Assembly: GCA_024694125.1 (NCBI GenBank)
Contig: JAILKE010000024.1
Location: 5,784 to 69,783, forward strand
DNA length: 64,000 nt
Reading direction: 5' to 3'
DNA from: Bacteroidales bacterium
GTDB lineage: Bacteria > Bacteroidota > Bacteroidia > Bacteroidales > UBA3663
Shown: positions 1,206-18,073 of the stretch, piece after piece
How the letters are laid out: the number at the start of each line of letters is the position of its first letter
Numbering within the stretch: the stretch's first letter is position 1
Made by a program: the position numbers and the translations under genes
The notes under the pieces: model-generated
What the model saw: the letters and a program-made list of their open reading frames with translations, nothing else
Databases searched by the model: none
What the model was told of the DNA's origin: nothing

Positions 1206-1811
1206 ATGGGAAAACTACGACAAACAGCACTCATTCTGGGCGAAGGACCAACGGAGTTCTTCTACTTCAAGTCCCTATGCGATGTATTCAAGCATCTGAC
1301 CATCAAACCAGACTATCCGAAGCATACAAGCATCAAGGAACTTGACCTGAAGATTACCGAGGGTATAGACATGGGTTACAGCCATATCTTCTGCATCATC
1401 GACATGGACACGAAGGACAAGGAGCCAGAGCGTTCACAATACCAGAAGCTAAAGGCAAAGTATGCCAAGCCTATCAACAAACCCAAGAAAGGCATCTATT
1501 GCGAGGTCGAATTCTTTGAGACTCACCGCTGCACAGAACTGTTCTTCCTTTACTATTTCCGCTACACCTCACGCCCCTACGACGAGCAGGAACCATTGCT
1601 TAAAGACCTCAACCAATGTGTAGAGTATCGGAAAACGATAGAGTTCTTCATCAAGACCAAAGGACTGCATAGCTACTTTGAACGCAATGGCGGTAGCCTT
1701 GAAAAAGCTGTGGCCAATGCAAATCGCTCAATGGATGAGAAGTTGAAGGATGGTAGAGATTATACTTACTCGGAGCTGGGGAGGTTGATAGGGAGGTTAA
1801 AGAGTATATGA
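1206..1811 (+). CDS. RloB-like protein (TOPRIM-like putative nuclease)
   Basis: N-terminal LILGEGPTEFFYF, DxD (IIDMD) and ELFFLYYF motifs are typical of the RloB family. Coupled to the ATPase gene. Confidence 0.75.
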   Translation: MGKLRQTALILGEGPTEFFYFKSLCDVFKHLTIKPDYPKHTSIKELDLKITEGIDMGYSHIFCIIDMDTKDKEPERSQYQKLKAKYAKPINKPKKGIYCEVEFFETHRCTELFFLYYFRYTSRPYDEQEPLLKDLNQCVEYRKTIEFFIKTKGLHSYFERNGGSLEKAVANANRSMDEKLKDGRDYTYSELGRLIGRLKSI

Positions 1812-1877
1812 GACTCAAAAAGATAGACAAAGAATATCACTAACAATCTTTTGAAGATTTATTTTTTTTTTTATTCT

Positions 1878-3323
1878 ATGATGAACATAAGTCAAGAAAT
1901 AGAAAAAGCACAAAAGGTGCTTAAAGACGGAGGCAATATTATTAAGACTAGGGATGACCGTGACTTGATATTAGTTGACAAGGACGGAAACATACAGAAT
2001 ACAGATAATTGCGGGTGGTTACCAGAGAATGATGGGGAAATCAACAAATCTGTGTTTCGTACACGTATTGAACCTTGGTTAACTTCTCTGTTTCAGTCAG
2101 AACACCTATCATTACTTTGTGGTTCTGGAATAACCAATGCCGTTAGTTTTTTGGCTGGTTGCGGTGGCGGCACAACAATGGCTGCAAGTTCTTTTACAAC
2201 TTATAAAAACGAGATTGAAGAGTCTGCCAAGAAATCCGCAAAAGCCAGCGGACGTGAAAACGGAAATATAGAAGATCAGATTAGGACTGCAAATGATTTA
2301 TTGCGTGGTCTTAGGATTTTGAATAAAAACACGGAAGCTGATTCATTAGAAAAGGAACTAAATGCTATCATCAGTGCGTTTGCCAAGTCGATTTTGGAGT
2401 CTGAAAAGGCCATTGCTACAGCTACAGACGATAAACGCGAAAATGCTTATTCCGTATTGGTAAACTTTTTATTGAGCTTTGCAAGCAGAACGGGAAACCG
2501 CGAAAGGCTGAATATCTTTACTACAAACTATGACCGATTGATAGAGGTTGGCGCGGAGTTAGCAGGTATTCATCTTATGGATAGGTTCGTGGGAACAATG
2601 ATGCCCATATTCCGTTCATCCAGACTAAATCTTGATATTCACTATAACCCTCCAGGAATACGTGGTGAGCCTCGCTATTTAGAGGGTGTTGCCCGATTGA
2701 CCAAATTACACGGTTCTGTTGATTGGGTACAAAATGAGGACGAAATAAGACGAATTGGATTACCATTTGGAGCTAATGATATTGCGCCTTATTTGAATGC
2801 ACCAGGTTTGAAAGGGACTGATCCACTGAAGTTGATGATATATCCCAATTCTGCCAAAGATAGAGAGACTGCAGAATACCCATATGTGGAACTATTCAGA
2901 GACTTTGCTGCTGCTATATGCAGACCTAATAGTACTTTGGTAACATACGGCTATGGTTTTGGGGACGAACATATCAACCGTGTTATTCATGATATGCTTA
3001 CGATTCCTTCTACACATCTGGTCGTTATTTCTTTCAATGACCCGATTGGAAGGATCCTGCAATTCTATTATGAATCCGCTCACTATGCACAGATGTCTGT
3101 GCTGATAGGTAGTGACTTGGGAAATCTTACCAATCTGGCTAACGATTATTTGCCTAAATCAGCTATTGACAGAACCACTATCCGTATGGCAGAACTTCTG
3201 CAACATCGTATGGGAGCAGCTTCAACTGCTTCTTCTACAAGTACAACTTCTACATCTTTGACAGGTTCTGCTTCGTCTACTACCACAACAACGTCAACTT
3301 CACAATCAACATTGGCAAAATGA
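1878..3323 (+). CDS. SIR2-like (SIR2_2) NADase effector
   Basis: Motifs LLCGSG, FTTNYD, KLHGS and GYGFGDEHIN. ATG at 1878 preferred over TTG at 1851. Stop overlaps the HerA start (ATGA). Confidence 0.85.
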   Translation: MMNISQEIEKAQKVLKDGGNIIKTRDDRDLILVDKDGNIQNTDNCGWLPENDGEINKSVFRTRIEPWLTSLFQSEHLSLLCGSGITNAVSFLAGCGGGTTMAASSFTTYKNEIEESAKKSAKASGRENGNIEDQIRTANDLLRGLRILNKNTEADSLEKELNAIISAFAKSILESEKAIATATDDKRENAYSVLVNFLLSFASRTGNRERLNIFTTNYDRLIEVGAELAGIHLMDRFVGTMMPIFRSSRLNLDIHYNPPGIRGEPRYLEGVARLTKLHGSVDWVQNEDEIRRIGLPFGANDIAPYLNAPGLKGTDPLKLMIYPNSAKDRETAEYPYVELFRDFAAAICRPNSTLVTYGYGFGDEHINRVIHDMLTIPSTHLVVISFNDPIGRILQFYYESAHYAQMSVLIGSDLGNLTNLANDYLPKSAIDRTTIRMAELLQHRMGAASTASSTSTTSTSLTGSASSTTTTTSTSQSTLAK

Positions 3324-5362
3324 CAACAACACCTATTGAACAACTGGCCTCACTTCGAGTTGGAACGGTAGAGTTTATTTCACCTGATAGGATAGAGGTA
3401 CAGCTTGATATTGAATCACCGGATAGCGTGGCGCTAAATACGGGAACACCAAGAAACTTTCCTCGAATCAATGGGTATGTAATGATTCCTGTTGATTTGG
3501 GATTTGTAGTTGGACAGGTGTCGTGGATTACAATTCAACGTTCACCATATCCAAAACGCAGTGGGTTTCAGGATTTCGGTTTGATAGACTTACCTTTTCC
3601 ATTGAGGAAAATGGAACTACAACCTGTTGGAACTTTGATTGCCTCAGAAAAAGGCTATAAGTTTAAGCGTGGACTTGAAACTTTTCCATCAGTTGGTGAT
3701 ATTGTCATCCTTCCAACAGAAGAACAATTGAAGTCTATTATCGAGTCTGGTGACAACCGTAGGGTACATATTGGAAATAGCCCGCTTGTTGGAAATGCGA
3801 AGGTGATGATAGACCCTGACAGATTGTTTGGTCGTCATCTGGCCGTTCTTGGTAATACAGGTAGCGGCAAGTCTTGTTCCGTGGCAGGACTTATTAGGTG
3901 GTCGCTTGAAAGTGCAAGCAATAATAAATTCAAGAAAGACTTACCTGTAAACAGTAGATTCATTGTTCTTGACCCTAATGGTGAATACAGTAAAGCGTTT
4001 ACTGATAAGAAGGACGCAAATATTTATTCTGTGAATATAGAGGATGGAGATGGTAGAAAACAGTTGGAAGTTCCTTTATGGTTTTGGAATACGGATGAAT
4101 GGTGTGGCTTTACAAAGGCATCACCCAAGACTCACCGAACGACCATCGTACATGCGCTAAAGTCTGTGAGGAGTGGTAACGTGTTTGAGGTAGAGAGTAA
4201 GGAAAAAGAATTGGCGAGCTTTGTTCGGACAGTAATCAATACGATAGAAGTTTATAAAACGAAAGGAACGCCATGGGGCAATTTCCCTGGGCCAAAGAAT
4301 TTCAGAGAATCACTCCAGAAATGGAATGCCGGAGTAGTATCAGAAGATACGTTTTCGCAAGAACTTAAGGATGCGGTAGCGGCTTTTAATACTAAAGTTG
4401 CTGAGTTTGAAACTCAAAGGGCTCCTCTATATTCTAATCAGGATTATGTGAGATGGAATGTGGATGTTTTGCTCACCTTATTAAAAGATGTTTATTTGAA
4501 AGCAGGAGGTAGGGAGGAGGAGTTCCTGCCTACAGATGAAGATAGTCCCATTCCATTCTCTGGAGAAAATTTTGTGCGCTCCATTGAAGCCAATGCTGAG
4601 ATTCTCAATACTACGGACTATATAGTAACGTTGATGCCTCGCATCAAGACGTTGTTATCGGATGTGAGAGTGAAAAAAGTGATAGATGATTCATCATTGG
4701 AGTTAAGTGATTGGCTAAGTGAATACATCGGTTCGGATTGTAAAGAATCGTTGACGATTATAGACCTGTCTCTCTTGCCTTCTGACGTAACAAGTATAAT
4801 TACTTCGGTCATTGCCAGAATGGTGTTTGAGGCACAACAGAGATATCTGAAACTGAATAAAGCATGTCTGCCAACCGTTTTGGTAATGGAGGAAGCACAT
4901 TATTTCGTGAAACGTTATAATGATGATGCAGAGAACACGGGACCAACGATCCAATGCTGCAAGGTGTTTGAGAAGATAGCCCGTGAAGGACGAAAATTTG
5001 GATTAGGCCTTGTTTTGTCATCGCAAAGACCCTCTGAATTATCACCCACAGTTTTGTCACAATGTAATTCCTTCTTGTTGCATAGAATATCCAATGACCG
5101 AGACCAAGAATTGGTTCAACGCTTGCTGCCCGACAATATGCGTGGGATACTGCGAGAGATTCCATCGTTGCCCTCTCAATATGCGGTATTGCTCGGTTGG
5201 GCATCAGAACTACCTGTTATGGTAAAAATGAGAACTCTCCCAGAAGCTCAACGTCCTCAGTCAGATGATCCCGACTATTGGAATGTATGGACTGGTGCAA
5301 AGGAACGTAAGATAGATTGGAAGAGTATTGCTAATGAGTGGCAAAACAAAAGAACAGAGTAA
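3320..5362 (+). CDS. herA: HerA/FtsK-family ATPase (DUF87), partner of SIR2 in a Sir2-HerA anti-phage system
   Basis: N-terminal HAS-barrel-like region, RHLAVLGNTGSGKS, LDPNGEY, Walker B VMEEAH, REGRKFG and SQRPSEL. Confidence 0.88.
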   Translation: MTTTPIEQLASLRVGTVEFISPDRIEVQLDIESPDSVALNTGTPRNFPRINGYVMIPVDLGFVVGQVSWITIQRSPYPKRSGFQDFGLIDLPFPLRKMELQPVGTLIASEKGYKFKRGLETFPSVGDIVILPTEEQLKSIIESGDNRRVHIGNSPLVGNAKVMIDPDRLFGRHLAVLGNTGSGKSCSVAGLIRWSLESASNNKFKKDLPVNSRFIVLDPNGEYSKAFTDKKDANIYSVNIEDGDGRKQLEVPLWFWNTDEWCGFTKASPKTHRTTIVHALKSVRSGNVFEVESKEKELASFVRTVINTIEVYKTKGTPWGNFPGPKNFRESLQKWNAGVVSEDTFSQELKDAVAAFNTKVAEFETQRAPLYSNQDYVRWNVDVLLTLLKDVYLKAGGREEEFLPTDEDSPIPFSGENFVRSIEANAEILNTTDYIVTLMPRIKTLLSDVRVKKVIDDSSLELSDWLSEYIGSDCKESLTIIDLSLLPSDVTSIITSVIARMVFEAQQRYLKLNKACLPTVLVMEEAHYFVKRYNDDAENTGPTIQCCKVFEKIAREGRKFGLGLVLSSQRPSELSPTVLSQCNSFLLHRISNDRDQELVQRLLPDNMRGILREIPSLPSQYAVLLGWASELPVMVKMRTLPEAQRPQSDDPDYWNVWTGAKERKIDWKSIANEWQNKRTE

Positions 5363-6484: not shown

Positions 6485-9400
6485 TTACTTGACCAATACT
6501 ATTTTGCCGCCACGGACATAGAGGCCATTGCGACGTGGAGTCTGGGCCTTGGTGCCTTCCAGGGTGTAGGTGTTGACTTGGACGGCATCTGCCTCCACTT
6601 CCGTCAGACCATTGACCAAGGTGAAGGTGCCTGTGATGGTCAGGTCACTGGCTGGCATGGTGGCAGGAATCTCGCTCCACCCCGAGAAGGTGTAGCCCTC
6701 CTTGATTGGGTCATCCAGAGGAATGATGACTTTGCCCTCCTTGATAGAGAGAGTCTGATATACCACACCGTCCACAACGTAAGTCAGGGTGTAGTATTGA
6801 GGAGCATCGGCATTCTCGTTGATGAAGAAGAAATCCTTCCACTGGTCCGCTGCCTTGTATGCCTCGATGTTCTCCTTCGGGACATAGAGCGAGCAGTTCC
6901 ACTTGTTGATATCCTCCAGGGCCTGACTGCCGCAGGAAGGTGGAACTTCAGCTGTGCTGTAAATCTCGGTCAGTGCCGTGCAGTCGGAGAATGCCTCCTT
7001 GCCAATGCTCTGCATACCGTCTCCGAAACCGAAGTATCCGAGGCTGGAGCAGCCGGAGAAAGCATAGTTGCCTATCTTGCTGACTCCATCACCAATCTTG
7101 ACATTCTTCAGTCCAGTGCAGCCATAGAACTCATTGTCATATATCTCGGTCTCCTGGTCGGTGATGACGATGGTGCGGAGCGAGGTGTTGCGATAGAATG
7201 GCGAGTATCCATAGTCTGCGCTTGTCTGGTAGCTGATCTTGCCACCGATATAGACTGAATCCAATGTACAATCGGCAAACAGGGATGCACTGCCGTTGCT
7301 GCCCAGGGACAACACAGTCTTGCGGTCTGCTATCATTACATCGCCCAATAGTGTGCACTTCTGGAACGCATAGTTGCCGATAGAAGTTACTGATTGAGGG
7401 ATCTCTATTTCGGGCAAAACAGAACATCCACTGAAGGCATAACTGCCTACAGTCTGTAAGTTGTCATTGAGGAAAACCGAGGCCAATTTAGAGCACCCAG
7501 AGAAAGCGTAACTGCCTACCGATTTAATGCTTTTGCCCAGTTGGACAGAGAGCAATGCCGAGCATCCGTAGAAAGCATAGTCTCCAATAGAACTGATGCT
7601 GTCGCCCAGGTTACAAGCAGATAACGTACTGCAATTATAAAAAGCTTGGTTTCCTATGCTGCCATTATTGCGGATATTTGCCTCTTTTAGCTTGGTACAT
7701 CCGTAGAAAGCGGAATCGCCAATTGCACCATTGTTACTGATGTCGGCAGTTTTGAGATTGGTACATTCATAAAAAGCAGAACTGCCAATTGCACCATTGT
7801 TACTGATGTTGGTAGTTTTGAGATTGGTACATCCGTAGAAAGCACTTCCTTCAATAATGCCATCTGCCTCGGTGCTAAATCCTTTAAGGTTATTGTTCTT
7901 GTATGACAGGTATTGATTAATGGATTTTACGTTCATGGCTATACCCTTGAACGACACTGTCTTGCCAATCGAGATGATTGAGTCCTGTGGTAAGTAGGTC
8001 ACGTCAATGGCATCGCAGGTGCGTTCCGAAGGATTGACCGGCACATATCTTACTCCATTTACTTCGAACATGGAACTCAGGAAAGGATATACCTTCACAT
8101 TGCTCAGACTTGTATAGTTGGAGTTGGCAACGTAATTCACCATACCTGCTGCATTTCCGTAGTTAGTCGGAGGCGTATTGGTCAACCAAAATACTTTAGT
8201 AGGTTTGGAGCTAAATGCGTTGCTGCCGATTTCAGTTACTCCACTACCTATAGTTACAGACTGCAAAGCGGTGCAATCATTGAATGCGTAACCACCAATG
8301 ATTGTCACGCTGTTTGGGATGGTGATGCTCGTCAGGCCAGTGCAGCCATTGAAAGCAGAACCACCAATGCTTGTCACGCTGCTTCCGATGGAGATGCTCG
8401 TCAGGCCAGTGCAACCATAGAAAGCATAATAATCAATGTTTGTCACGCTGTTCGGAATGGTGATGCTTTTTATATCGTTGCGATAATAGAAGGCATATTC
8501 TGCAATTCCATCTACATTCGGCAAGGTCAAGGTTGTTGCAGTACCTAAATAGTCACAAATATACCGCTTGTCGTCCTTTGTCTGCAAAACATAATCTCCA
8601 TCTGTTGTATAGTTATTATAAACGGCAACAGCATAATAGGCCACATAACCATAGTTGGACGAGCCTTTAGTAATGGATAATGAAGAAAGATTAAAAACTT
8701 TTTTGAGATTAGAGCAGCCTTCGAAAGCAGAACTACCAATGCTTGTCACGCTGTTCGGGATGGTGATGCTCGTCAGACCAGTGCAGCCTTCGAAAGCATG
8801 ACTGCCAATGCCTGTCACGCTGTTCGGAATGGTGATGCTCGTCAGGCCAGTGCAGCCAGAGAAAGCCTCCCTACCAATATTTGTCACGCTGTTTGGGATG
8901 GTGATACTCGTCAGGCCAGTGCAACCTTCGAAAGCCCAACTACCAATGCTTGTCACGCTATTCGGGATGATGATGCTCGTCAGGTCTGTGCAGCCACCGA
9001 AAGCATCCTCACCAATGCTTGTCACGCTGTTCGGGATGGTGATGCTCGTCAGGCCAGTGCAGCCATTGAAAGCTAAATCACCAATGCTTGTCACGCTGTT
9101 TGGAATGGTGATGCTCGTCAGGCCTTTGCAGCCTCGGAAAGCTGCATAACCAATGCTTGTCACGCTATTCGGAATGGTGATGCTCTTCAGGCCAGAGCAG
9201 CCATCAAAAGCTGAACTGCCCATACAACAACAATTAGCATTTATTTCACAACTTGATATGGCCTTGGATTTAGCCTTTATCAAAGCTACGTATGGATTCT
9301 CTGTATTGCCTAAATAAAGAGAATTGTCATATTCGTTGTATTGTAGATTCGTGCAGCCTTTGAAAGCCTCCCAGCCAATGCCTGTCACGCTGTTCGGAAT

Positions 9401-10018
9401 GGTTATGCTCGTCAGGCCAGTGCAGCCACGGAAAGTATAATTACCAATGCTTATCACGCTGTTCGGGATGGTGATGCTCGTCAGGCCTTTGCAGCCATCA
9501 AAAGCCCCATGACCAATGCTTGTCACGCTGTTCGGGATGGTGATGCTCGTCAGGCCAGTGCAGCCATTGAAAGCAACACTGCCAATGCTTGTCACACTGT
9601 TCGGAATGGTGATGCTCGTCAGACCTTTGCAACCATAGAAAGCATAATTACCAATGCTTGTCACGCTGTTCGGGATGGTGATGCTCGTCAGTCCCGTGCA
9701 GTCCCAGAAAGCAGAACTAATGCTTGTCACGCTGTTCGGAATGGTGATGCTCGTCAGGCCAGTGCAGCCATAGAAAGCAGAACTGCCAATGCTTGTCACG
9801 CTATAGGTCTTGCCCGAATAAGTGACAGTAGAAGGAATGGTTACAGACCCAGTTATGTATGAAGAATTATAACTTTTATAAGTCACTTCCACTGTCAAGT
9901 CCGTGCTTGACGAGATGCTATAATACAATCCGCCACTATAGAAATCGTAGGCGGAGGCAGATTGGCAGAGGAGCATCAATATGCCCGTCAGCCAGAGGGT
10001 GAGTAAAGATTGTTTCAT
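6485..10018 (-). CDS. BspA-type (LRR_5) leucine-rich-repeat surface protein with InlB-B-like repeat and T9SS-like C-terminal tail
   Basis: Signal peptide, many [23 protein letters not shown] repeats, [18 protein letters not shown], and C-terminal YTLEG...[13 protein letters not shown]. Confidence 0.92.
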
Positions 10019-10160
10019 TTTAGTAAATTTTAATGGATATTGTTGTTTTAACTATAGATTATTGGTAATGACTACGTCGTAGTCAGAAAAATATTTATTG
10101 TGTGCGAGTAGTAAGATGATTAGTGTGCCTCCTGACTCCAAATTTGGCATCGATTTAAAC

Positions 10161-10403
10161 AAAAAAAGACGGGAGCTTCCACTTGGTTGCTTACCCGCTA
10201 TTGAGGCTCTCGCATCGCCCTTCTATAGATAAGCAACGATGAAAGCCCACGCCTATGAAGTATGTTTACACAAAAGCTGTGCTGATAGGATAGCACAGTG
10301 ATTGCATATACATAAATCACGCGCGGACGCTCTAATCGTTACATTATCATCATAGAAGAAATTTGCGAGATCTCAATAGCGATGATAACGACGTTGTAGC
10401 GTC
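10161..10403 (-). promoter_or_regulatory. Structured 5' leader of the BspA gene (attenuator-like, ends in hairpin + U7)
   Basis: Two hairpins with mutually complementary loops. Promoter -7 TATCTTTG on the minus strand at about 10461-10468. Confidence 0.6.
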
Positions 10404-10704
10404 TTTTGTATGAACAATAAAATCAATGAGAGAATCCACCACTGTGGCTCATTGATGTGGCAAAGATAAGAAAAATAATTGTTACCTTGAAATAAATTGC
10501 ACAAAAAAAATGCAATTGATGTGCAAAAAACGGGTTAATAGTTTATTTCTCGCAGAGTTTAAGGAGTGTAAGAGAGTTTATTCGTTTGGGTTATCGTTCC
10601 CGTTATCAATTCGTTTAATTTTTTTTGAACGCAAAATTTGCGAAAACGACGAAGAAGGTTTGTATGAATTTGTTTAATTGGATGATACCTCTTATTACGA
10701 AGTT

Positions 10705-11147
10705 TGAGAGTTTATAGGAGTAAGTATGGAAGTCCTCTGGTAGATGTATATTGATTTCAATTAATGGAGAATATAAAGAACACCGTTTGGGAGTCTTGAA
10801 GTCATCCTAAACGCGGTATATTTGCCATGACAAATATACCTTCTGTCGCACCTTCGGCGCTCGATACAAACCCCTCGCTGCTCCGGTTGAAAACGGGGGC
10901 TCACGCCCCCGCCTGTATTCCCGCGGACCTTCGGCCCGCCGCCTGACTGGAACCCGAGTGTAAGAGTGTTTTGTTATGGTCTTGGTTTTCGTCCGAAGTC
11001 TTTTTAATTTCTCGCAGAGGAAAAAGAGTGTAAGAGCGTTTCCTGGGTGCGTTAATCTCTTTCCTCTCTATTTCTCAATGAGAGTATATAGGAGTAAGTA
11101 TGGAAGACCTCTGGTAGATGTATATTGATTTTGATTAATGGAGAATA
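10705..11147 (+). repeat. 69-bp direct repeats (10705-10773 and 11079-11147) bracketing REP-like copy 2
   Basis: TGAGAGTWTATAGGAGTAAGTATGGAAGWCCTCTGGTAGATGTATATTGATTT..ATTAATGGAGAATA occurs twice, with 4 mismatches. Confidence 0.85.
10811..10953 (-). repeat. Multi-hairpin REP-like element, copy 2
   Basis: Same sequence family as 6225-6367 and 31897-32040. Confidence 0.85.
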
Positions 11148-11285
11148 CTTGACGGCCTAACTGGGAAGAGTGGAAAGGTTTGCAAAGGAGCTTTCGTCCG
11201 TTTCGATTCTTTCGTGTTCACTTAAATAAGCAGATTGAACAAGATAGAAACGGATTTTCGGTTAACGTTCTGATTTCGTAAGAAG

Positions 11286-11354
11286 TATAGCCAAGTATAG
11301 GCAAAAGTATAGGGGGGTAAAATTTGGATTGGGGAAATATGATTAGTACCTTTG
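11286..11354 (+). promoter_or_regulatory. Bacteroidetes sigma-A promoter with a 35-bp upstream element
   Basis: TTTG (11323-26), N20, TACCTTTG (11347-54). The upstream 35-mer is identical in inverted orientation to 29538-29572. Confidence 0.7.
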
Positions 11355-11497
11355 CGCCGCGATTCAGCCAAAGACAGCTGTCGAGGTTGGACGCTTGCTT
11401 CGGAGAGGCGCTGGTGTGCTGTACTATAGGCGGCGAAGTCAGCCCGGACCGAAGTAAACGATCTTTGACATATTGGAAATAAAAGTGTAAGTCCTGC

Positions 11498-12229
11498 CTA
11501 GTGGACCAGCATGGCGATGACGGAGAGGATGGTGACAATCTGGATGAAGCGGCGGAAGGTCCGTTCGGGGATTACCTTGACCAGACGGATGCCGATCAGT
11601 GCACCCAGTCCAATGACAGGGAGCATGAGGAGGTTGAGGCGGAAGGTGTCCCAGGTGATATTGTCCCAAACGAAGATCTGCAGCGGGACCTTGAGCAGAT
11701 TGACCACCAGGAAGAACCAGGCATTGATACCGATGTAGGAGAGCTTGTCCTGTCGCATGGAGAGCAGATAGATGGACATCACCGGTCCGGCTGCATTGCC
11801 GATCATGGTGGTGAAACCGCCCAGCAAACCGAAGATGGCGGAGTACCACCAACGGTTCATCCAGCGGTTCTCCTTGCCGAAGATCTCGCTCCATATCATC
11901 ACGCCCATTGCCAATGCCAGGGTCCAACCCATCAGCATGCGGAACCTTTCGGTAGGGATGAGACTGTCCACCCAGATGGCAACGAAGAAGCCTAATACCG
12001 CCGTGGGTAACAGCCGCGCCACCACGCGCCAGTCCGCTATGCGTTTGTAATAGATCACGGCTATGACATCGGCCATACAGAGCATGGGTAATATAATTCC
12101 GGTTGATTCCTTGGCACCGAACGCCATGGCCATATAGGGCACGACGAGCAGCGTCATTCCCTGTATGCCCGTCTTGGACATTCCTATGCATAATGCCGTC
12201 AGGATAAGTATGGTGTATTCGAAAAGCAT
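11498..12229 (-). CDS. TauE/SafE family (sulfite exporter-like) membrane protein
   Basis: About 8 TM helices, with IGMSKTGIQG and GLLGGFTTMIGNAAGP motifs. Confidence 0.85.
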   Translation of the reverse strand: MLFEYTILILTALCIGMSKTGIQGMTLLVVPYMAMAFGAKESTGIILPMLCMADVIAVIYYKRIADWRVVARLLPTAVLGFFVAIWVDSLIPTERFRMLMGWTLALAMGVMIWSEIFGKENRWMNRWWYSAIFGLLGGFTTMIGNAAGPVMSIYLLSMRQDKLSYIGINAWFFLVVNLLKVPLQIFVWDNITWDTFRLNLLMLPVIGLGALIGIRLVKVIPERTFRRFIQIVTILSVIAMLVH

Positions 12230-12243
12230 TGGCCCTTGGTCAA

Positions 12244-12456
12244 AAAATTGAAAATTGAAAGTTGAAAATTGAAAGTGAAAGTTGAAAATTGAAAAGTGAA
12301 AATTGAAAATTGAAAGTTGGAAATTGAAAGTTGAAAGTTGAAAGTTGAAAGTTGAAAATTGAAAGTTGAAAATTGCAACCGATTAGCCGATTGTATCGTC
12401 CCTGTCACTTCCTTTTCACTTCCTTTTCACTCCCTTTTCACGTCTTTGTCACTTCC
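12244..12456 (-). repeat. Composite intergenic repeat: 11-mer array, GGGACGATACA anchor, (TTTYCAA-type) 7-mer array
   Basis: About 18 GAAARTT units at 12244-12374, TGTATCGTCCC at 12392-12402, then TCACTTCCTTT 11-mers. Confidence 0.85.
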
Positions 12457-12457
12457 A

Positions 12458-15400
12458 TTATAATTTCACCTTCCCACCGTCGCTGTGTGCGACGAACTGA
12501 GGAGCGTATTGGCTCTGGATAGTGGCGATGCCGAGAGCAAAGGAGCCGGTGTTGGTGACGTGGCAGTCGTAGGTGAGGACGTGGACACCCTTGGGGAGAC
12601 GTTGGATGAAGAAGTTGGTCTGGCTGTCCTTGGTCTCCTGGTAGTAGATGCAGTCCTCCCAACCGTAGTGAGAGAGCTGATCGACAGGTTCGAGGCAGGC
12701 GGGACGCTGGTCCGTGAGGGTGAGATACTCCAGCGCCTTGGAGCAAGTGACCACGAGGCGGACCTGCACCCGCTGGCCGATGGAGAGGTCAGCCTTGCCG
12801 CTGGTGGAGAGGCGGTACCACTGGCCCGCGCGGTCCTGAGCCCACAGCTCCTTGCGGATGGAGAGTTCGCTGACCGACTGGCGCTGTACCTGTTCCATGG
12901 GAGCCTCGTACTGATGGATGACGGCACCCCAGGCAGGGTGATACTGGGCACTGGTCACCTCGATGTGACGTACCGAGTCGGGCAGGTCAATGCGCATGTT
13001 GCCGAGCAGGGCATTGTCCGGTGAGTAGGTGAGAGGACGTCCATTGATGCTGATGCGCAGTGTGCTGGCGGAGTCCGGCTGGTCGTGCACCCAGTCCTGA
13101 CCAGTGCGCAACAGGGCATGGACGGCATCGGCTGCCAGGCTGGAGTTGCCCCAGTCGGAGGTCTGTTTCTCGAGCAACAGCCACTGACGGATGCGCTCTA
13201 TCTGTGAGGCATACTGATGGGGTGCAATCTCGCTGAAGGCATTGAGTATGACAGCGGTATGTGCGACTGGATGCGACCACGGGCCATCGGGCAGACGATC
13301 CCAGTACATGCCGCGCTCCGGATCACTGACTGCCAGCTGCGAGAGACTCTCGACGATGCGTGCGGCTGCCTCGTGCCGACCGGAACGGTGCAGAGTGATG
13401 GCACAGTAGGCACGGTCAGAGAGCGACACCTGACGCCAGTCGTCCTCCATGGCATGGAGCACCTTGCGGCGCAGTTGTTCCGTCTGCTGGCGGATGTGGG
13501 CTGATGCGTAGGGGCGCTGCTGGTCGAAGAGCGTGCAGATATAGGCATAGTCGGCAAAGCAGAGGTAATCGATGCGTTCGCGCCAGCGCTTGCTGTCACT
13601 GAGCCTGTCGAGCACCTCATGGTCCAGATACTGGAGGGCGCGATGGAGCATGTCATCCAGCATCGGGTCACCCTGACGGCAACCCAATAGGCGCATCTCG
13701 CCGAGCAGTTGCACCACTGCTGAGGTGGCCCAGTAGGAGGAATGGAGGTAGTGCGGGTTGGAGCACCACAGGAAGCCTCCATCGGGCATCTGCATCAGAC
13801 GGAGCGCACCGCACAGACGGTTGTAGTCGGCACTGTTCAATGTGGGATTGAGCAGTCGGCCCAGTGCCTGCATCCGCTCCTGCTGCATATCCGCCGCACG
13901 GAGCCAGGGCGATGCCTGGAGCGTACCGACCTTGAGGTCGCTGTTCCGGTAGAGCTGCGAGACCATGGGCAGATGGGGCTGCTGTTCGATGAGCGTGCCA
14001 GCCACACCGAGGGCGAAGAGCTGGTGTGCTATGCCTGTGCTGGTCGAGGCGGGAGCTTGCGCCACGCTGGGTAGTGCCTCGATGCAGTACCAGGTGGGGT
14101 TGCTGCATGCCATCAGCACGCTGCGTGACTGACGGGCGGCGGGGCGATGGACATCGAACGAGATGCTCCTGGTACCTGATGCAAGGAAGAAGGGTTGACC
14201 CTCGATGACCGGTGTGACGCAGGGCAGGACGGGGATGCGCTGCTGCTCGCCGTCGCCATTGCCCTGAGCATCGACCGCCTTGATGCGGAAGCCGATGTAG
14301 GGTTCGGCCGTAGGAGCTGTGCACGAGATGGAAACGGTCTGGGTGCCGCGTGGTTCCAGCCGAACCTGCTGACGGCGGCTGTCCAGGACCTGCTCAGTGC
14401 GCGGGTCGAAGAGTTCGACGAGGACCGAGGCCTGGATGGCCGAGTCCGAGGCATTCTGTACATTGGCCGAGAGTGTTGTCCCGTCGCCTGCACGGAGGAA
14501 CCGCGGCAGGGAGGGTTGTACCATGACGGGACGCTGGGCAACGACCTCGGTATGCCACAGGTCGGTGGCCAGTGACCGGGTGAAAGCCAATGCCTGCAGG
14601 TGCCAGGTGGCATTGTCCGACGGCATATCGAACGTGATCTGTACAATACCCGCCGAATCGGTGGTCAAGGTGGGGCGCCACAGCGCCACGTGCGTCTGGG
14701 TGGAGCGGACGGCTATATCGTCGAACGTAGTCTGGGCAACGGCATTGCCGGCAGCGTCCGCAGTGGACACTGCCACCTTGATTTCCTCGTCGTCATAGAC
14801 CGTGTTGACTTCTGCGGCGCGGGAAGCCCTCTTGGACGACTTGAGCGACAGTCCGGCTATGCGTCCCTGCAGGGCTTCGCCCAGCGAGCGGCGTCCGGAG
14901 CGAGAGCCGACTACTACTGTCTCGCACAGTGCCATGCTATAATCCAAAGCATAGGTGTCATTGAACTCCGGCGGGACGATGCCCATGATGCGGCGTATTA
15001 CTCCATAGAGCGGGTAACGAGACCTGTATTGATAGGTACGACCGTATGAATGTAAAGAGGAATAATGGAAAGAGGTAGAGAGGTAGTCGGGGGCAAACTG
15101 CCACTGATTGGACTGGAGTTGTTCCAGCGCCTTGCTGTAGAGGTCGAGCAGCATTCGGCCCTGTGCCGGACGTCCCTCGGCATCGGTCAGCCGGAGCGTC
15201 CACTGCTGCCTGCTGCCAGCTGCAACATGGTCGCGGAAGGACTGGACATTGATCTTGACCTCATCCCGCAGGGGCGAGAGCAGGGTGGCGGACTGTCGGG
15301 ACAATCGGTCATCTATGTAGCAGATGACCTCGACATTGAGCCGTTCGTCACGTGCGGCAGGCATGTCCAATGTCAGGTCGTGCATGCCGGCAGCAAAGTG

Positions 15401-18073
15401 CTTCCAGCCACGACTGACTATGCCCTGGCGCGACTCGGCTATATAATAGAGATGGAAGGCGCTGTGTGCTCCCACAGGGATGTGCGCCTTGCCGTCGGCC
15501 GTGACCTGCTGCAGGGCAGAGGGCATCCACAACCCCTGGACGCCACGTGGAGCCAACCGGTCAGAGCGGCGGAAGAGGATGACCTCCCGTTCAAAGCCAT
15601 TGTCGGCAGGTTGGCCCTCGACGCGGGCGGACAGGATGTAGGTACCCGACGGAACGGCACTCCAATCGACCGATGGACGCTGGGCTGGGAATGTGCCCTG
15701 ACGGACCAGCTGCCTGCTGCCGGCATCGGTCAGCGTATAGCGGCAGATGACATCGGTGGTGGCGGTGTCGGCACTCTGGTAGGTGATGGGCAATGGGTAC
15801 AGACCCGTGTCGGGCAGGAGCAGGGCTGTCTGGTCGAGCTGGATGCGGCGACTGTGACCGATGCGTATGCTGGTGTGGGCTGTCTGGGTCTCGCCAGCCA
15901 GGTCGGTGCACTGGACATCGACGCTGATACGGAATGCGTCGGAATGAGATGAGTCCTCTATCCAGCCGTAGGGGCATCGGTACTCGAAGTTGCCCTCCTG
16001 GTCGGTAGTGGCAGTGCCGGAGTGTCGGCCCAGATTGCTCCCCCAGAACCACATGCGTGAGGCCTCGAGGTTGCACTGTATGGTGCCGTTGGACACGGGC
16101 AGACCGCTGTAGGACAATGCCTTGCCGCGGATGACGAGCAGGGAGTCGGACCGGGACTGCCCCTGGGGCGTGCCCGACAGATCGACGTAGAAGGTGGGCG
16201 CCTTGTACTCGCTGACCTGGATGAAGTGGGTAGCTATGGCCGAATTGCGCAACCCGGTAGGACTCTCCAGTTCGAGGCGGTATGTGCCGTTCATACGGTC
16301 AGTGGGCAGGGTGAACTGCTCGGTCAGTTGGCCCCAGTCATCGGCAGTGACACTCTTGGCAGCGAGTTTCTTGTGATTGGGGTCGTACAGGGTCAATGTA
16401 TAGAACTTGCCATCGGTGATGAGCCGGCGACTGGTTGTGCCGAGCTGATACAGGATGGCCGTGACGCGGACCTTTTCGCCAGGACGATAGATGGCCAGGT
16501 CGGTGAAAATCTGTGCGCTGATGGGCTCCCAGCGTTGGGGAAACTGTTTGCGCCGCGCATAGTTGGTCCTATCCAATTTGTTCAGATAGATGTCGTCGCC
16601 GCGGTGCAGGATGTAGTAGTAATACGACCCGTCGCAACCTGTGACAGCGCCGTTAAGGTCAGTCGTGCCCTGCATGGGGAATTGTAATTCTGGGTACCGA
16701 GAATACTCGACAGTGACACCCTCCTGCGGGGCTCCGTCCAGCGCATTGATGGCGAAGATGTCGATAGTGTCAGCCGTGCTGACCGCGAAGGTGCGCAGGT
16801 CCGAGACTGTGAATAAGTGATTGCTGGCTCGATTCAAATATTCATCATCATACTTCTTGGGGCACACCCATCGGCCTTGATCATCGCGCAATGAGGTGGT
16901 GGTGAAATAGACTCCGTAGGGTTGTGCCGGGAAAGAGGCGTGGCAGGTCTGCTGGCCAAGGCTGTCGTGATGGACTATAACCTCGTCGATGTATTGTAGC
17001 TGCGATAAGCGGACCTTGTCGAATTTGTTCAACAGCTTGTCCGGCATGCGGTACAGAGTGACCTTACACTCGGCTGCATTGTCGTCCATGAACCTGACGC
17101 TGACGGAGATGTCCTGACGTGAAGTGTAGCAGGGGTGGATTTCGGTCTCGACATTGGCTATGTCCCATATATCGATTTGGTTCTGGACATAGGGGGTGAA
17201 GGGGGAACGGGGATAGGCCGCAACGTAGCGCTGACAGTCGTCGTACGATGTCTGTCTGTGCATTCCAGACCCATGCAGGGTGTAGAGCAGACCGACTTCG
17301 GGTTGATTGCGATACTGGGCAATGAGTGAGTCTATGTCCTGCTGGTTCCAGTCCGAAGTGTTGTAGCTGATGTAGATGCGGGGATAGAGACTCTGGTCCT
17401 GGGCGTGGACATTGAGCCACTGCATACGCAGGTCCTTCCGCTGTGACTGTGGATGGGAGGGAAGGGTGGAGAATTTCTTTTCGGCCAACAAATCGAACAG
17501 ATAGGGCATGCAACGTTGTCCCCATTCATCGCCGGGATGGACGATGCCCTGATAGTGGGTACAGGGCTGCATCAGTGCCGATATGTCGCCATTGCCCAAC
17601 GGGTCGAGCGCACGGTCAAGGAAGGCGTCCCGAAGACTGTCCCTGCGGGAACTGCTCCACCGGGTAATGTCGTCGCTCTCATCATCTCCTTTCTCCAAAC
17701 TGAACCACATATTAGCATATCGGTTGAGTAACTCGCTCTTGTAGTAATAGAGTATAGCATTGTAATCGGGTGAAAGATGTCCTACCTGCATCACGGAATC
17801 AATCACGGTGAGTGCACTGCCGAGGTTCCGCTCTGAGATGTAGATGCGCGACTTGCCAATCTGCATGGCCGCCAGGACGATATCGTGCTGGTTGCCCTCC
17901 CGGAGGGCCTGGTGCAATGCCACGTAGGCATTGGCCTCGACCTCCCTGGGAAAATCGAAGTCGGGTTTCTGGAACGTGTTGGCTGCCTGGACGTCGGACA
18001 TAAATCCGCTCAATACTATGGTAAGCGTGAGGATTGATCTGGTAATATGTTGTAATGCCTTCATAATAGTCAT
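12458..18073 (-). CDS. Bacterial alpha-2-macroglobulin family protein
   Basis: FTDLAIYRPGE (MG2), QVSEYKAPTF, PSLPRFLRAGD and DQRPACLEP motifs; 1871 aa with a signal peptide. Confidence 0.92.
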   Translation of the reverse strand: MTIMKALQHITRSILTLTIVLSGFMSDVQAANTFQKPDFDFPREVEANAYVALHQALREGNQHDIVLAAMQIGKSRIYISERNLGSALTVIDSVMQVGHLSPDYNAILYYYKSELLNRYANMWFSLEKGDDESDDITRWSSSRRDSLRDAFLDRALDPLGNGDISALMQPCTHYQGIVHPGDEWGQRCMPYLFDLLAEKKFSTLPSHPQSQRKDLRMQWLNVHAQDQSLYPRIYISYNTSDWNQQDIDSLIAQYRNQPEVGLLYTLHGSGMHRQTSYDDCQRYVAAYPRSPFTPYVQNQIDIWDIANVETEIHPCYTSRQDISVSVRFMDDNAAECKVTLYRMPDKLLNKFDKVRLSQLQYIDEVIVHHDSLGQQTCHASFPAQPYGVYFTTTSLRDDQGRWVCPKKYDDEYLNRASNHLFTVSDLRTFAVSTADTIDIFAINALDGAPQEGVTVEYSRYPELQFPMQGTTDLNGAVTGCDGSYYYYILHRGDDIYLNKLDRTNYARRKQFPQRWEPISAQIFTDLAIYRPGEKVRVTAILYQLGTTSRRLITDGKFYTLTLYDPNHKKLAAKSVTADDWGQLTEQFTLPTDRMNGTYRLELESPTGLRNSAIATHFIQVSEYKAPTFYVDLSGTPQGQSRSDSLLVIRGKALSYSGLPVSNGTIQCNLEASRMWFWGSNLGRHSGTATTDQEGNFEYRCPYGWIEDSSHSDAFRISVDVQCTDLAGETQTAHTSIRIGHSRRIQLDQTALLLPDTGLYPLPITYQSADTATTDVICRYTLTDAGSRQLVRQGTFPAQRPSVDWSAVPSGTYILSARVEGQPADNGFEREVILFRRSDRLAPRGVQGLWMPSALQQVTADGKAHIPVGAHSAFHLYYIAESRQGIVSRGWKHFAAGMHDLTLDMPAARDERLNVEVICYIDDRLSRQSATLLSPLRDEVKINVQSFRDHVAAGSRQQWTLRLTDAEGRPAQGRMLLDLYSKALEQLQSNQWQFAPDYLSTSFHYSSLHSYGRTYQYRSRYPLYGVIRRIMGIVPPEFNDTYALDYSMALCETVVVGSRSGRRSLGEALQGRIAGLSLKSSKRASRAAEVNTVYDDEEIKVAVSTADAAGNAVAQTTFDDIAVRSTQTHVALWRPTLTTDSAGIVQITFDMPSDNATWHLQALAFTRSLATDLWHTEVVAQRPVMVQPSLPRFLRAGDGTTLSANVQNASDSAIQASVLVELFDPRTEQVLDSRRQQVRLEPRGTQTVSISCTAPTAEPYIGFRIKAVDAQGNGDGEQQRIPVLPCVTPVIEGQPFFLASGTRSISFDVHRPAARQSRSVLMACSNPTWYCIEALPSVAQAPASTSTGIAHQLFALGVAGTLIEQQPHLPMVSQLYRNSDLKVGTLQASPWLRAADMQQERMQALGRLLNPTLNSADYNRLCGALRLMQMPDGGFLWCSNPHYLHSSYWATSAVVQLLGEMRLLGCRQGDPMLDDMLHRALQYLDHEVLDRLSDSKRWRERIDYLCFADYAYICTLFDQQRPYASAHIRQQTEQLRRKVLHAMEDDWRQVSLSDRAYCAITLHRSGRHEAAARIVESLSQLAVSDPERGMYWDRLPDGPWSHPVAHTAVILNAFSEIAPHQYASQIERIRQWLLLEKQTSDWGNSSLAADAVHALLRTGQDWVHDQPDSASTLRISINGRPLTYSPDNALLGNMRIDLPDSVRHIEVTSAQYHPAWGAVIHQYEAPMEQVQRQSVSELSIRKELWAQDRAGQWYRLSTSGKADLSIGQRVQVRLVVTCSKALEYLTLTDQRPACLEPVDQLSHYGWEDCIYYQETKDSQTNFFIQRLPKGVHVLTYDCHVTNTGSFALGIATIQSQYAPQFVAHSDGGKVKL

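Follow-up and report, generated by a model that had tools for sequence, protein, structure and literature searches.

What kind of device is formed by a leader whose two long hairpins carry loops that are complementary to each other? This question was raised by a locus of a Bacteroidales bacterium that was examined within a window of 64,000 nt (the whole stretch of contig JAILKE010000024.1 that was analyzed, to which all position numbers refer). The locus lies upstream of a gene for a BspA-type leucine-rich-repeat protein, and its RNA order is read along the minus strand. In the initial annotation, two hairpins (A and C) with complementary loops were described, and pairing between the loops was proposed to compete with a terminator hairpin. 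Every pairing and coordinate listed for these hairpins and loops was recovered in the sequence and by folding, and the proposed order of promoter, hairpins, and U tract was present in the window copy and conserved across the related copies described below. For clarity, the strands of the leader are numbered as segments 1 to 6 (Table 1). Segment 1 has two possible partners, segment 3 in the two-hairpin fold or segment 6 and the U tract in a rod-like fold, and can also form a small local hairpin at 10403-10390 in the computed fold of the window copy. Segment 2 carries variable arms, 2a and 2b, around an invariant core that is exposed by a mini-hairpin of its own. As in intrinsic terminators, a stem composed of 4a:6b and 4b:6a stands directly before U7; a simple terminator scan missed this hairpin A because its loop, at about 30 nt, is unusually large. 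Likewise, helices that share strands and exclude one another lie between the promoter and the open reading frame (ORF), which is the arrangement of an attenuator.

Table 1. Leader features in RNA order and neighboring features, with positions in the window
Feature	Position	Strand	Basis or remark
-7 box, TAnnTTTG type	10461..10468	-	Read in the sequence; transcription start expected near 10455
P0, hairpin at the 5′ end of the transcript	10422..10457	-	Computed fold; compensated stem changes between copies, by eye in the alignment
Segment 1, consisting of 1a (A tract + GACGC) and 1b	10381..10407	-	Fold and aligned copies
Segment 2 (loop C): arm 2a, core UCUCGCA (10370-10364), arm 2b	10352..10380	-	Fold and aligned copies
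Segment 3, shared strand	10324..10351	-	Pairs with segment 1 (hairpin C) or segment 4 (rod)
Middle hairpin M	10255..10323	-	Variable sequence; AU-rich stretch kept on the 3′ side
Segment 4	10227..10254	-	5′ arm of terminator hairpin A, or partner of segment 3 in the rod
Segment 5 (loop A)	10197..10226	-	Variable arms flank a near-invariant core, GGCRAUGCGA..GCC (10220-10205)
Segment 6	10168..10196	-	3′ arm of hairpin A
U7 tract	10161..10167	-	With segment 6, an intrinsic-terminator-like end
Post-terminator hairpin, GGAG in loop	10126..10149	-	Stems covary by eye
Downstream gene, BspA-type leucine-rich-repeat protein, 1177 aa	6485..10018	-	Pfam LRR_5, E 5.2e-218, plus Flg_new
RloB	1206-1811	+	Defence-type cluster
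SIR2_2 protein	1851-3323	+	Defence-type cluster
HerA/DUF87 ATPase	3320-5362	+	Defence-type cluster
Dispersed repeat copy	10548-10571; second conserved block about 10715-10775	+	
Dispersed repeat copy	11010-11033; second conserved block about 11088-11150	+	

When the minus strand at 10150-10470 (321 nt) was folded, its free energy of -118.7 kcal/mol was well below that of shuffled sequences (-76.95 ± 4.98 kcal/mol; z -8.38; 0 of 100 shuffles as good), and the opposite strand folded more weakly (-107.8 kcal/mol). The two-hairpin picture was only partly retained: all of its pairings are present, but the computed minimum-energy fold is one long rod, in which segment 2 is paired with segment 5 (a duplex of 25 pairs, -32.2 kcal/mol) and segment 3 with segment 4. 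The ATG of the downstream gene, whose type was confirmed by Pfam LRR_5, is positioned 143 nt beyond the U tract, close to the 140 nt first estimated. A perfect 15-nt palindrome, GACTACGTCGTAGTC, at 10071-10085 lies between the post-terminator hairpin and this ATG and is kept in the paralogous leader on another contig of the genome (C3).

The leader was subsequently found to be widespread among relatives. In its own genome, a second full copy (the C3 paralogue, L002), 88% identical, precedes another BspA-like gene, and one or two weaker matches to hairpin A were additionally detected. By BLAST, 22 of 36 other genomes of the genus carried the element, compared with none of 24 genomes from other families. 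A covariance model of 117 positions, R1, was built from hairpin A and the U tract (104.9 bits for the window copy); within the genus it matched 32 of 39 genomes, one of them as many as 14 times, and outside it 13 of 149 genomes of other Bacteroidales genera, with E-values down to 8e-13. The family-level genome search covered no genomes beyond the 39 of the genus search. Copies outside the genus retained the whole architecture, with the upstream core visible by eye in eight of nine. An exact-pattern scan of named species genomes yielded 33 loci, all in uncultured Bacteroidales or Prevotellaceae and mostly from rumen or herbivore gut, with one genome named Candidatus Liminaster caballi, while viral contigs gave 23 loci with a broader pattern, and R1 confirmed 14 of these. 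One full, unannotated member was identified on a plasmid of Bacteroides finegoldii TSDC17.2-1.1 (NZ_OY725942.1, about 28.2-28.55 kb), and two 'Bacteriophage sp.' records from human stool also match the element. After removal of duplicates, 88 distinct copies remained, including 66 with a recognizable 5′ module, 19 without one at the nhmmer threshold, and 3 cut by contig ends; a hairpin 3′ of the terminator was detected by a crude test in 59 of the 88. Among the 19 apparent half copies, 10 had a diverged but cognate partner, 3 had no detectable core, and 6 had no partner at all. Since these six have hairpin A but no detectable upstream partner, hairpin A must also be able to work alone. In three hairpin-A-only copies (L021, L024, and L052) the usual 5′ module is replaced by a different shared sequence about 60-70 nt upstream of hairpin A, with a conserved TTTGGGAAC, 6 bases, and then GGTATCA (by eye), which is possibly another promoter type. 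The element gave no hit to Rfam 15 within 9000-12000 at E-values up to 1, and nine related loci searched at E-values up to 0.1 matched only a tRNA, in keeping with the initial annotation, which could assign no named family. Judged by sequence comparison, the leader is a member of a large, unnamed Bacteroidales family of leader RNAs of about 300 bases.

The position of the copies relative to promoters and genes was then considered. In 55 of the 66 full copies, a TAnnTTTG box preceded segment 1 by 20-120 nt (median 53 nt), compared with 6/66 on the opposite strand and 4/44 in an interval 200 nt further upstream. TAnnTTTG is the Bacteroidetes -7 consensus, as given in the introduction of PMC7366714. 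When all 88 copies were examined for the orientation of the downstream ORF, 4 were too short to score; in 81 of the other 84 the main ORF was on the same strand, two were opposite, and one copy had no ORF. The downstream ATG was located at a median of 69 nt past the end of the model. The copies are single and scattered between unrelated genes, and their upstream neighbors are likewise unrelated, mostly housekeeping genes with no common regulator. The proposal that the BspA transcript carries this region as its 5′ leader is one component of the attenuator reading set out below, and shares with it a single estimate of somewhat better than even.

Covariation in the homologues was found for the loop-loop helix as well as for both folds. 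The pairs were counted on a MAFFT alignment of 65 copies with the structure taken from the window copy. For the two-hairpin fold, 83.0% of the cells were paired (76.2% when shuffled and 40-49% when the partners were slid) with changes on both sides at 43 of 61 pairs, and for the rod (2:5, 3:4, and 1a:6b) 79.2% were paired (73.7% when shuffled) with changes on both sides at 39 of 55 pairs; in each case 0 of 500 shuffles reached the score, a figure that overstates significance, given that the copies share ancestry and that the window copy supplied the tested structures. The counts of double changes and an alignment-free test are the sturdier evidence. In the latter, cognate 2:5 duplexes were predicted at -33.5 ± 3.4 kcal/mol compared with -16.4 ± 4.0 kcal/mol for non-cognate combinations, and for 58 of 61 copies (31 of 32 in the first set) no segment 5 bound segment 2 better than the copy's own. 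Individual helices were also well maintained: (i) the segment 1 helices 1a:3b (97.8% paired), 1b:3a (80-90%), and 1a:6b (94.9%), each with pairs changed on both sides; (ii) the terminator stem, with 4b:6a at 95.6-96.5% and 4a:6b at 90.8% in the 65 aligned copies; and (iii) the 3:4 helix, 84.2% paired with both sides changed at 15 of 21 pairs. Both folds draw on alignment columns 88-100 (segment 3) and 285-295 (segment 4), and are therefore mutually exclusive. In a diverged subfamily the sequences of 1b:3a and 4b:6a differ, and segment 3 still fits both of its partners by eye. Thus, the competition between the loop-loop helix and the terminator hairpin that had been postulated is supported by overlapping strands and by compensation that has kept both folds. 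G-U pairs outnumbered A-C mismatches about 3 to 1 (584 vs 184 and 459 vs 195), an excess which indicates that pairing is selected on the transcribed (minus) strand.

The 2:5 helix has an organization of its own, with two private arms around a core, UCGCA:UGCGA, that was identical in 65 of 65 aligned copies. As this core is invariant though paired, a constraint beyond pairing is indicated. A conserved, purine-rich 3x3 internal loop is located beside it. On the segment 2 side, 61 of 65 copies can form a mini-hairpin of at least 4 pairs, for which 18 different stems were counted and which places the core in a loop of 7-9 nt; segment 5, in which GGC...GCC was present in 61 of 61 copies, can form its own core-showing mini-hairpin. 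The arms behave otherwise than the core. Between the window copy and L002, 18 of 41 arm positions in segments 2 and 5 differ compared with 21 of 216 elsewhere, and the arm changes are compensated; the arms thus evolve much faster than their surroundings, which could reflect diversifying selection or template-switch mutation. Overall, three alternative pairings of one RNA (mini-hairpins, two long hairpins, and rod) are each backed by covariation, a situation that is rare naturally.

Energy calculations were used to compare the two long-range folds. The rod was the minimum-energy fold in 63 of 65 copies; the 3:4 helix was present in every one of these 63, and 4:6 reached 8 pairs in none of them. 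When segment 5 was held unpaired, 4:6 formed with at least 12 pairs in 61 of 65 copies and 1:3 with at least 8 pairs in 63 of 65, so that the predicted fold switches to the terminator once loop A is blocked, in line with the proposal that loop pairing competes with termination. The flip from the rod to 1:3 plus 4:6 costs 18.4 ± 4.8 kcal/mol, and in view of the rod's much greater predicted stability the terminator fold may arise only transiently, as an intermediate. In 51 of the 63 rods, at least 6 pairs are predicted between the A-rich start of segment 1 and segment 6 with the first U's, and the rod itself might therefore terminate. In the window copy, the rod next to the U tract was seen by eye to offer only a 4-pair GACG:CGUC helix past a large internal loop; as a terminator, this is far weaker in the modeled structures than 4a:6b with its 9-12 contiguous pairs.

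Overall, we somewhat favor the interpretation that the leader is a cis-acting transcription attenuator driven by an intramolecular exchange of kissing loops. Transcription would start at a sigma-ABfr-type promoter near 10455, and hairpin C (1:3) would form first, displaying the core of segment 2 in a small apical loop. As segment 5 emerges, its complementary invariant core would kiss this loop, the copy-specific arms would zip, and segment 4 would take over segment 3 with displacement of segment 1. The resulting long rod would leave segment 6 without a partner, such that the 4:6 plus U7 terminator could not form and the polymerase would read through into the gene. Were the loop-loop contact prevented or too slow, as with a masked core or a polymerase that arrives at segment 6 first, 4:6 would form instead and the transcript would end at 10161-10167. 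While the parts and their order, the promoter box, the orientation toward the gene, and the selection for both folds are observed, the U tract would have to terminate, the rod would have to permit read-through, and something would have to set the balance between them. Candidates for this last role are a protein or RNA that acts on the invariant cores, or the speed of the polymerase. If the leader is an attenuator, a trans-acting factor on the cores has in our estimate about an even chance, purely kinetic tuning is the less probable though still substantial choice, and a small-molecule ligand is improbable. A factor that reads the cores is suggested by the combination of invariant paired cores, the six copies with hairpin A only, and the purine-rich 3x3 internal loop.

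Other readings of the same observations were weighed against attenuation. A small RNA gene of about 290 nt that stands alone and functions in trans, the downstream gene being expressed by leak or from signals of its own, could account for a unit with its own promoter and terminator-like end, a very stable rod, invariant cores, and several copies per genome (up to 14 matches); we consider it unlikely, since 81 of 84 copies have their downstream ORF on the same strand, with a start that mostly falls 40-120 nt past the U tract and so leaves too little room for a promoter of its own, since conservation runs past the terminator into a further hairpin, and since the variable arms are complementary to each other rather than aimed at a common target. 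Equally unlikely in our estimate is a constitutive structural leader, in which the rod would protect or insulate the 5′ end of the mRNA or be processed, the choice between folds would be unregulated, and the two-hairpin pairings would be folding intermediates. Such a leader would not need a terminator stem before the U tract that is kept by compensation (4b:6a and 4a:6b at the frequencies given above), nor would a mere rod need invariant paired cores, and hairpin A with its U tract is also found without the 5′ module; to its credit are the rod as ground state in 63 of 65 copies, some 18 kcal/mol better than the alternative, and cargo genes with no common function that would point to one signal.

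An element that acts at the DNA level, whether an inverton with the complementary 'loops' as its boundaries, a hairpin recombination site, or a MITE, appears very improbable. Inverted repeats of 30 nt do flank 125 bp upstream of a surface-protein gene, a layout similar to that known from Bacteroides phase variation, both strands fold well, and the element is multi-copy and present on mobile DNA. However, the promoter is outside the repeats, and the repeat arms differ in every copy, which leaves no shared recombinase site beyond the 5-7 nt core. The interior scored higher in the forward direction in all 63 copies with a hit (of 65), which is weak evidence as the set was selected in that orientation. 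In Logan contigs from four DNA runs, 9700-10900 showed skip joints, attributable to related copies, but no strand-change joint; this too is weak evidence, as rare forms are not visible in contigs. Integrases numbered only 2 among 43 upstream genes, with no common recombinase, and the G-U excess, the U tract, and the fixed orientation toward the gene fit an RNA. A Bacteroides inverton in particular was rejected, with the promoter outside the repeats, one orientation, no linked recombinase, and no inversion joints. Integron attC or rAID-1-like repeats were rejected as well, the copies being single and scattered, without arrays or a recombinase; the rAID-1 integron-like repeats, compared here by layout and not by motif sequence, have a different layout in the portion of 10.1101/471110 available to us.

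Returning to transcription attenuation, the leader was compared with known systems that act on RNA. In terminator/antiterminator attenuators (trp, pyr, bgl/sac-type, and riboswitch platforms), as in the predicted folds of the leader, a strand alternates between a terminator and an alternative helix; in these terms 1:3 would be the anti-antiterminator, 3:4 the antiterminator, and 4:6 the terminator. Unlike the classical examples, the leader has no conserved leader peptide and no match to a known aptamer or protein-binding RNA family, a long loop-loop helix in cis would nucleate its antiterminator, and its cargo genes are mutually unrelated. Leader-peptide attenuation was rejected in that no ORF is conserved: from conserved ATGs in RNA motifs, ORFs of 6 to 68 codons with scattered ends were read in 32 full copies, among which 12 ORFs begin before segment 1. 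Riboswitches of any Rfam class and T-boxes were also rejected, with no match to an aptamer model and downstream genes not tied to one metabolite or pathway; a metabolite riboswitch is unlikely given this mixed cargo, the initial annotation having listed a riboswitch-like switch among its options. In the plasmids pT181, pIP501, and pAMbeta1, a separate antisense RNA pairs with a leader loop and causes termination. There too, pairing of a leader loop chooses between a terminator and a competing helix, whereas here both partners reside in one transcript and pairing should prevent termination. CopA-CopT and ColE1 RNA I-RNA II recognize each other by kissing of apical loops. The leader resembles them in presenting complementary cores in small apical loops, with a segment 2 loop, (C/U)UCG..., that is YUNR-like, and in pairing that is predicted to spread into the flanking arms, possibly through a four-helix intermediate; it differs in that the interaction is intramolecular, the cores are invariant in the family, and the arms are private to each copy. 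RfaH with ops in enterobacteria, and UpxY at Bacteroides capsule loci, rely on a short DNA or RNA signal and a dedicated NusG paralogue encoded nearby. Here, too, a common leader element precedes many horizontally acquired accessory or surface genes and would act against premature termination, but as a structured RNA of about 250 nt and with no NusG-like gene linked among the upstream neighbors.

Candidate structured RNAs of a palindromic or terminator-like kind have been listed for Bacteroidetes, e.g., HMP2_1881, and include Bacteroidales candidates that are near mobile-element genes and expressed in stool (Fremin and Bhatt 2021; PMC8040213). At 108 bp, HMP2_1881-type candidates are comparable in size with hairpin A (117 model positions), a likeness that is by description only. 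The 10-letter core motif was absent from the five supplement tables of PMC8040213 that were searched, and by NCBIfam the single radical-SAM cargo was not linked to the 'mobile pair' family named in that paper. No description of the leader was found by word searches of the literature, the 10-letter core motif matched only unrelated primers in papers, and the available portion of Ryan et al. 2020 contained no mention of it.

The genes that follow the leader were surveyed in a cargo set of 79 downstream proteins (the window's own and 78 scanned with Pfam). LRR_5 was detected in only 14 of the 79. The remainder were diverse, including (i) BACON, OmpA or beta-barrel, CsgG, PD40, peptidase C10 or C13, and SPFH+GYF domains; (ii) DUF2971, DUF6140, SIR2_2, FRG, Mrr_cat, SNF2, protein kinase, and HTH domains; and (iii) a glycosyl- or acyl-transferase and a radical SAM/SPASM protein. 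Cargo on viral contigs included C-5 DNA methylase, UvrD-like helicase, and PAPS-reductase-like proteins as well as DUF2971 and DUF6946, and 34 of the 78 scanned proteins had no Pfam match. Since the downstream genes are so diverse, the leader is not specific to BspA, and its earlier description as a device of surface proteins was too narrow. On the predicted functions of these proteins, the leader serves accessory surface and defence genes generally. Within the window, a defence-type cluster at 1206-5362 (+) is located just beyond the BspA gene (Table 1); elsewhere, the leader family is often found upstream of defence-type genes.

Additional features were observed around the leader. A separate dispersed repeat with 19 copies in the same genome, two of which are listed in Table 1, opens with TCTCGCAGAG, 8 bases, and then GAGTGTAA; about 70 nt further on, many copies close with a partly complementary CTCTGTGAGAG and then ..AAGAGTAAGTATG. 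One copy is also upstream of the paralogous leader on C3, and the first 7 letters of the repeat equal the segment 2 core, possibly by chance. The repeat has the look of a further structured unit or leader. A G+C-rich (76%) double hairpin at 10893-10938 (+), in the 1-kb non-coding stretch upstream of the leader, had a sub-threshold match to Rfam Acido-Lenti-1 (27.6 bits against a gathering score of 37; E 0.0015). At about 12245-12375 (+), GAAAATTGAAAGTT-like units are repeated in tandem and succeeded by CACTTCCTTTT-like units; this array is positioned between an alpha-2-macroglobulin-like gene (12458-18073) and an ORF for a 250-aa membrane-protein-like product (11439-12191) that had no match in Pfam or NCBIfam.

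A broader, more tentative reading, to which we give less credence than to attenuation itself, is that the element is a portable 'plug-in' cassette of the Bacteroidales, consisting of a promoter and a self-kissing RNA switch, in which UCGCA/UGCGA would dock a global protein or RNA factor that decides between termination and read-through. If so, one factor would govern several accessory surface or defence genes per genome and act as well on plasmids and phages of human-gut Bacteroides, and the private arms would evolve fast in a manner that avoids cross-pairing between copies.

Bacteroidales dominate gut communities, and we know of few cis-regulatory RNAs in this order, in which, to our knowledge, Shine-Dalgarno-led control of translation, Hfq, and ProQ are lacking. 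The three covariation-backed pairings within one RNA make the leader a good model for co-transcriptional strand exchange, and the full member in cultured Bacteroides finegoldii makes the switch idea directly testable. A leader common to BspA-like adhesins, outer-membrane proteins, and many defence-type genes, and carried by plasmids and phage-like contigs, would define a regulon of accessory functions and provide a new handle on how such genes are silenced or activated.
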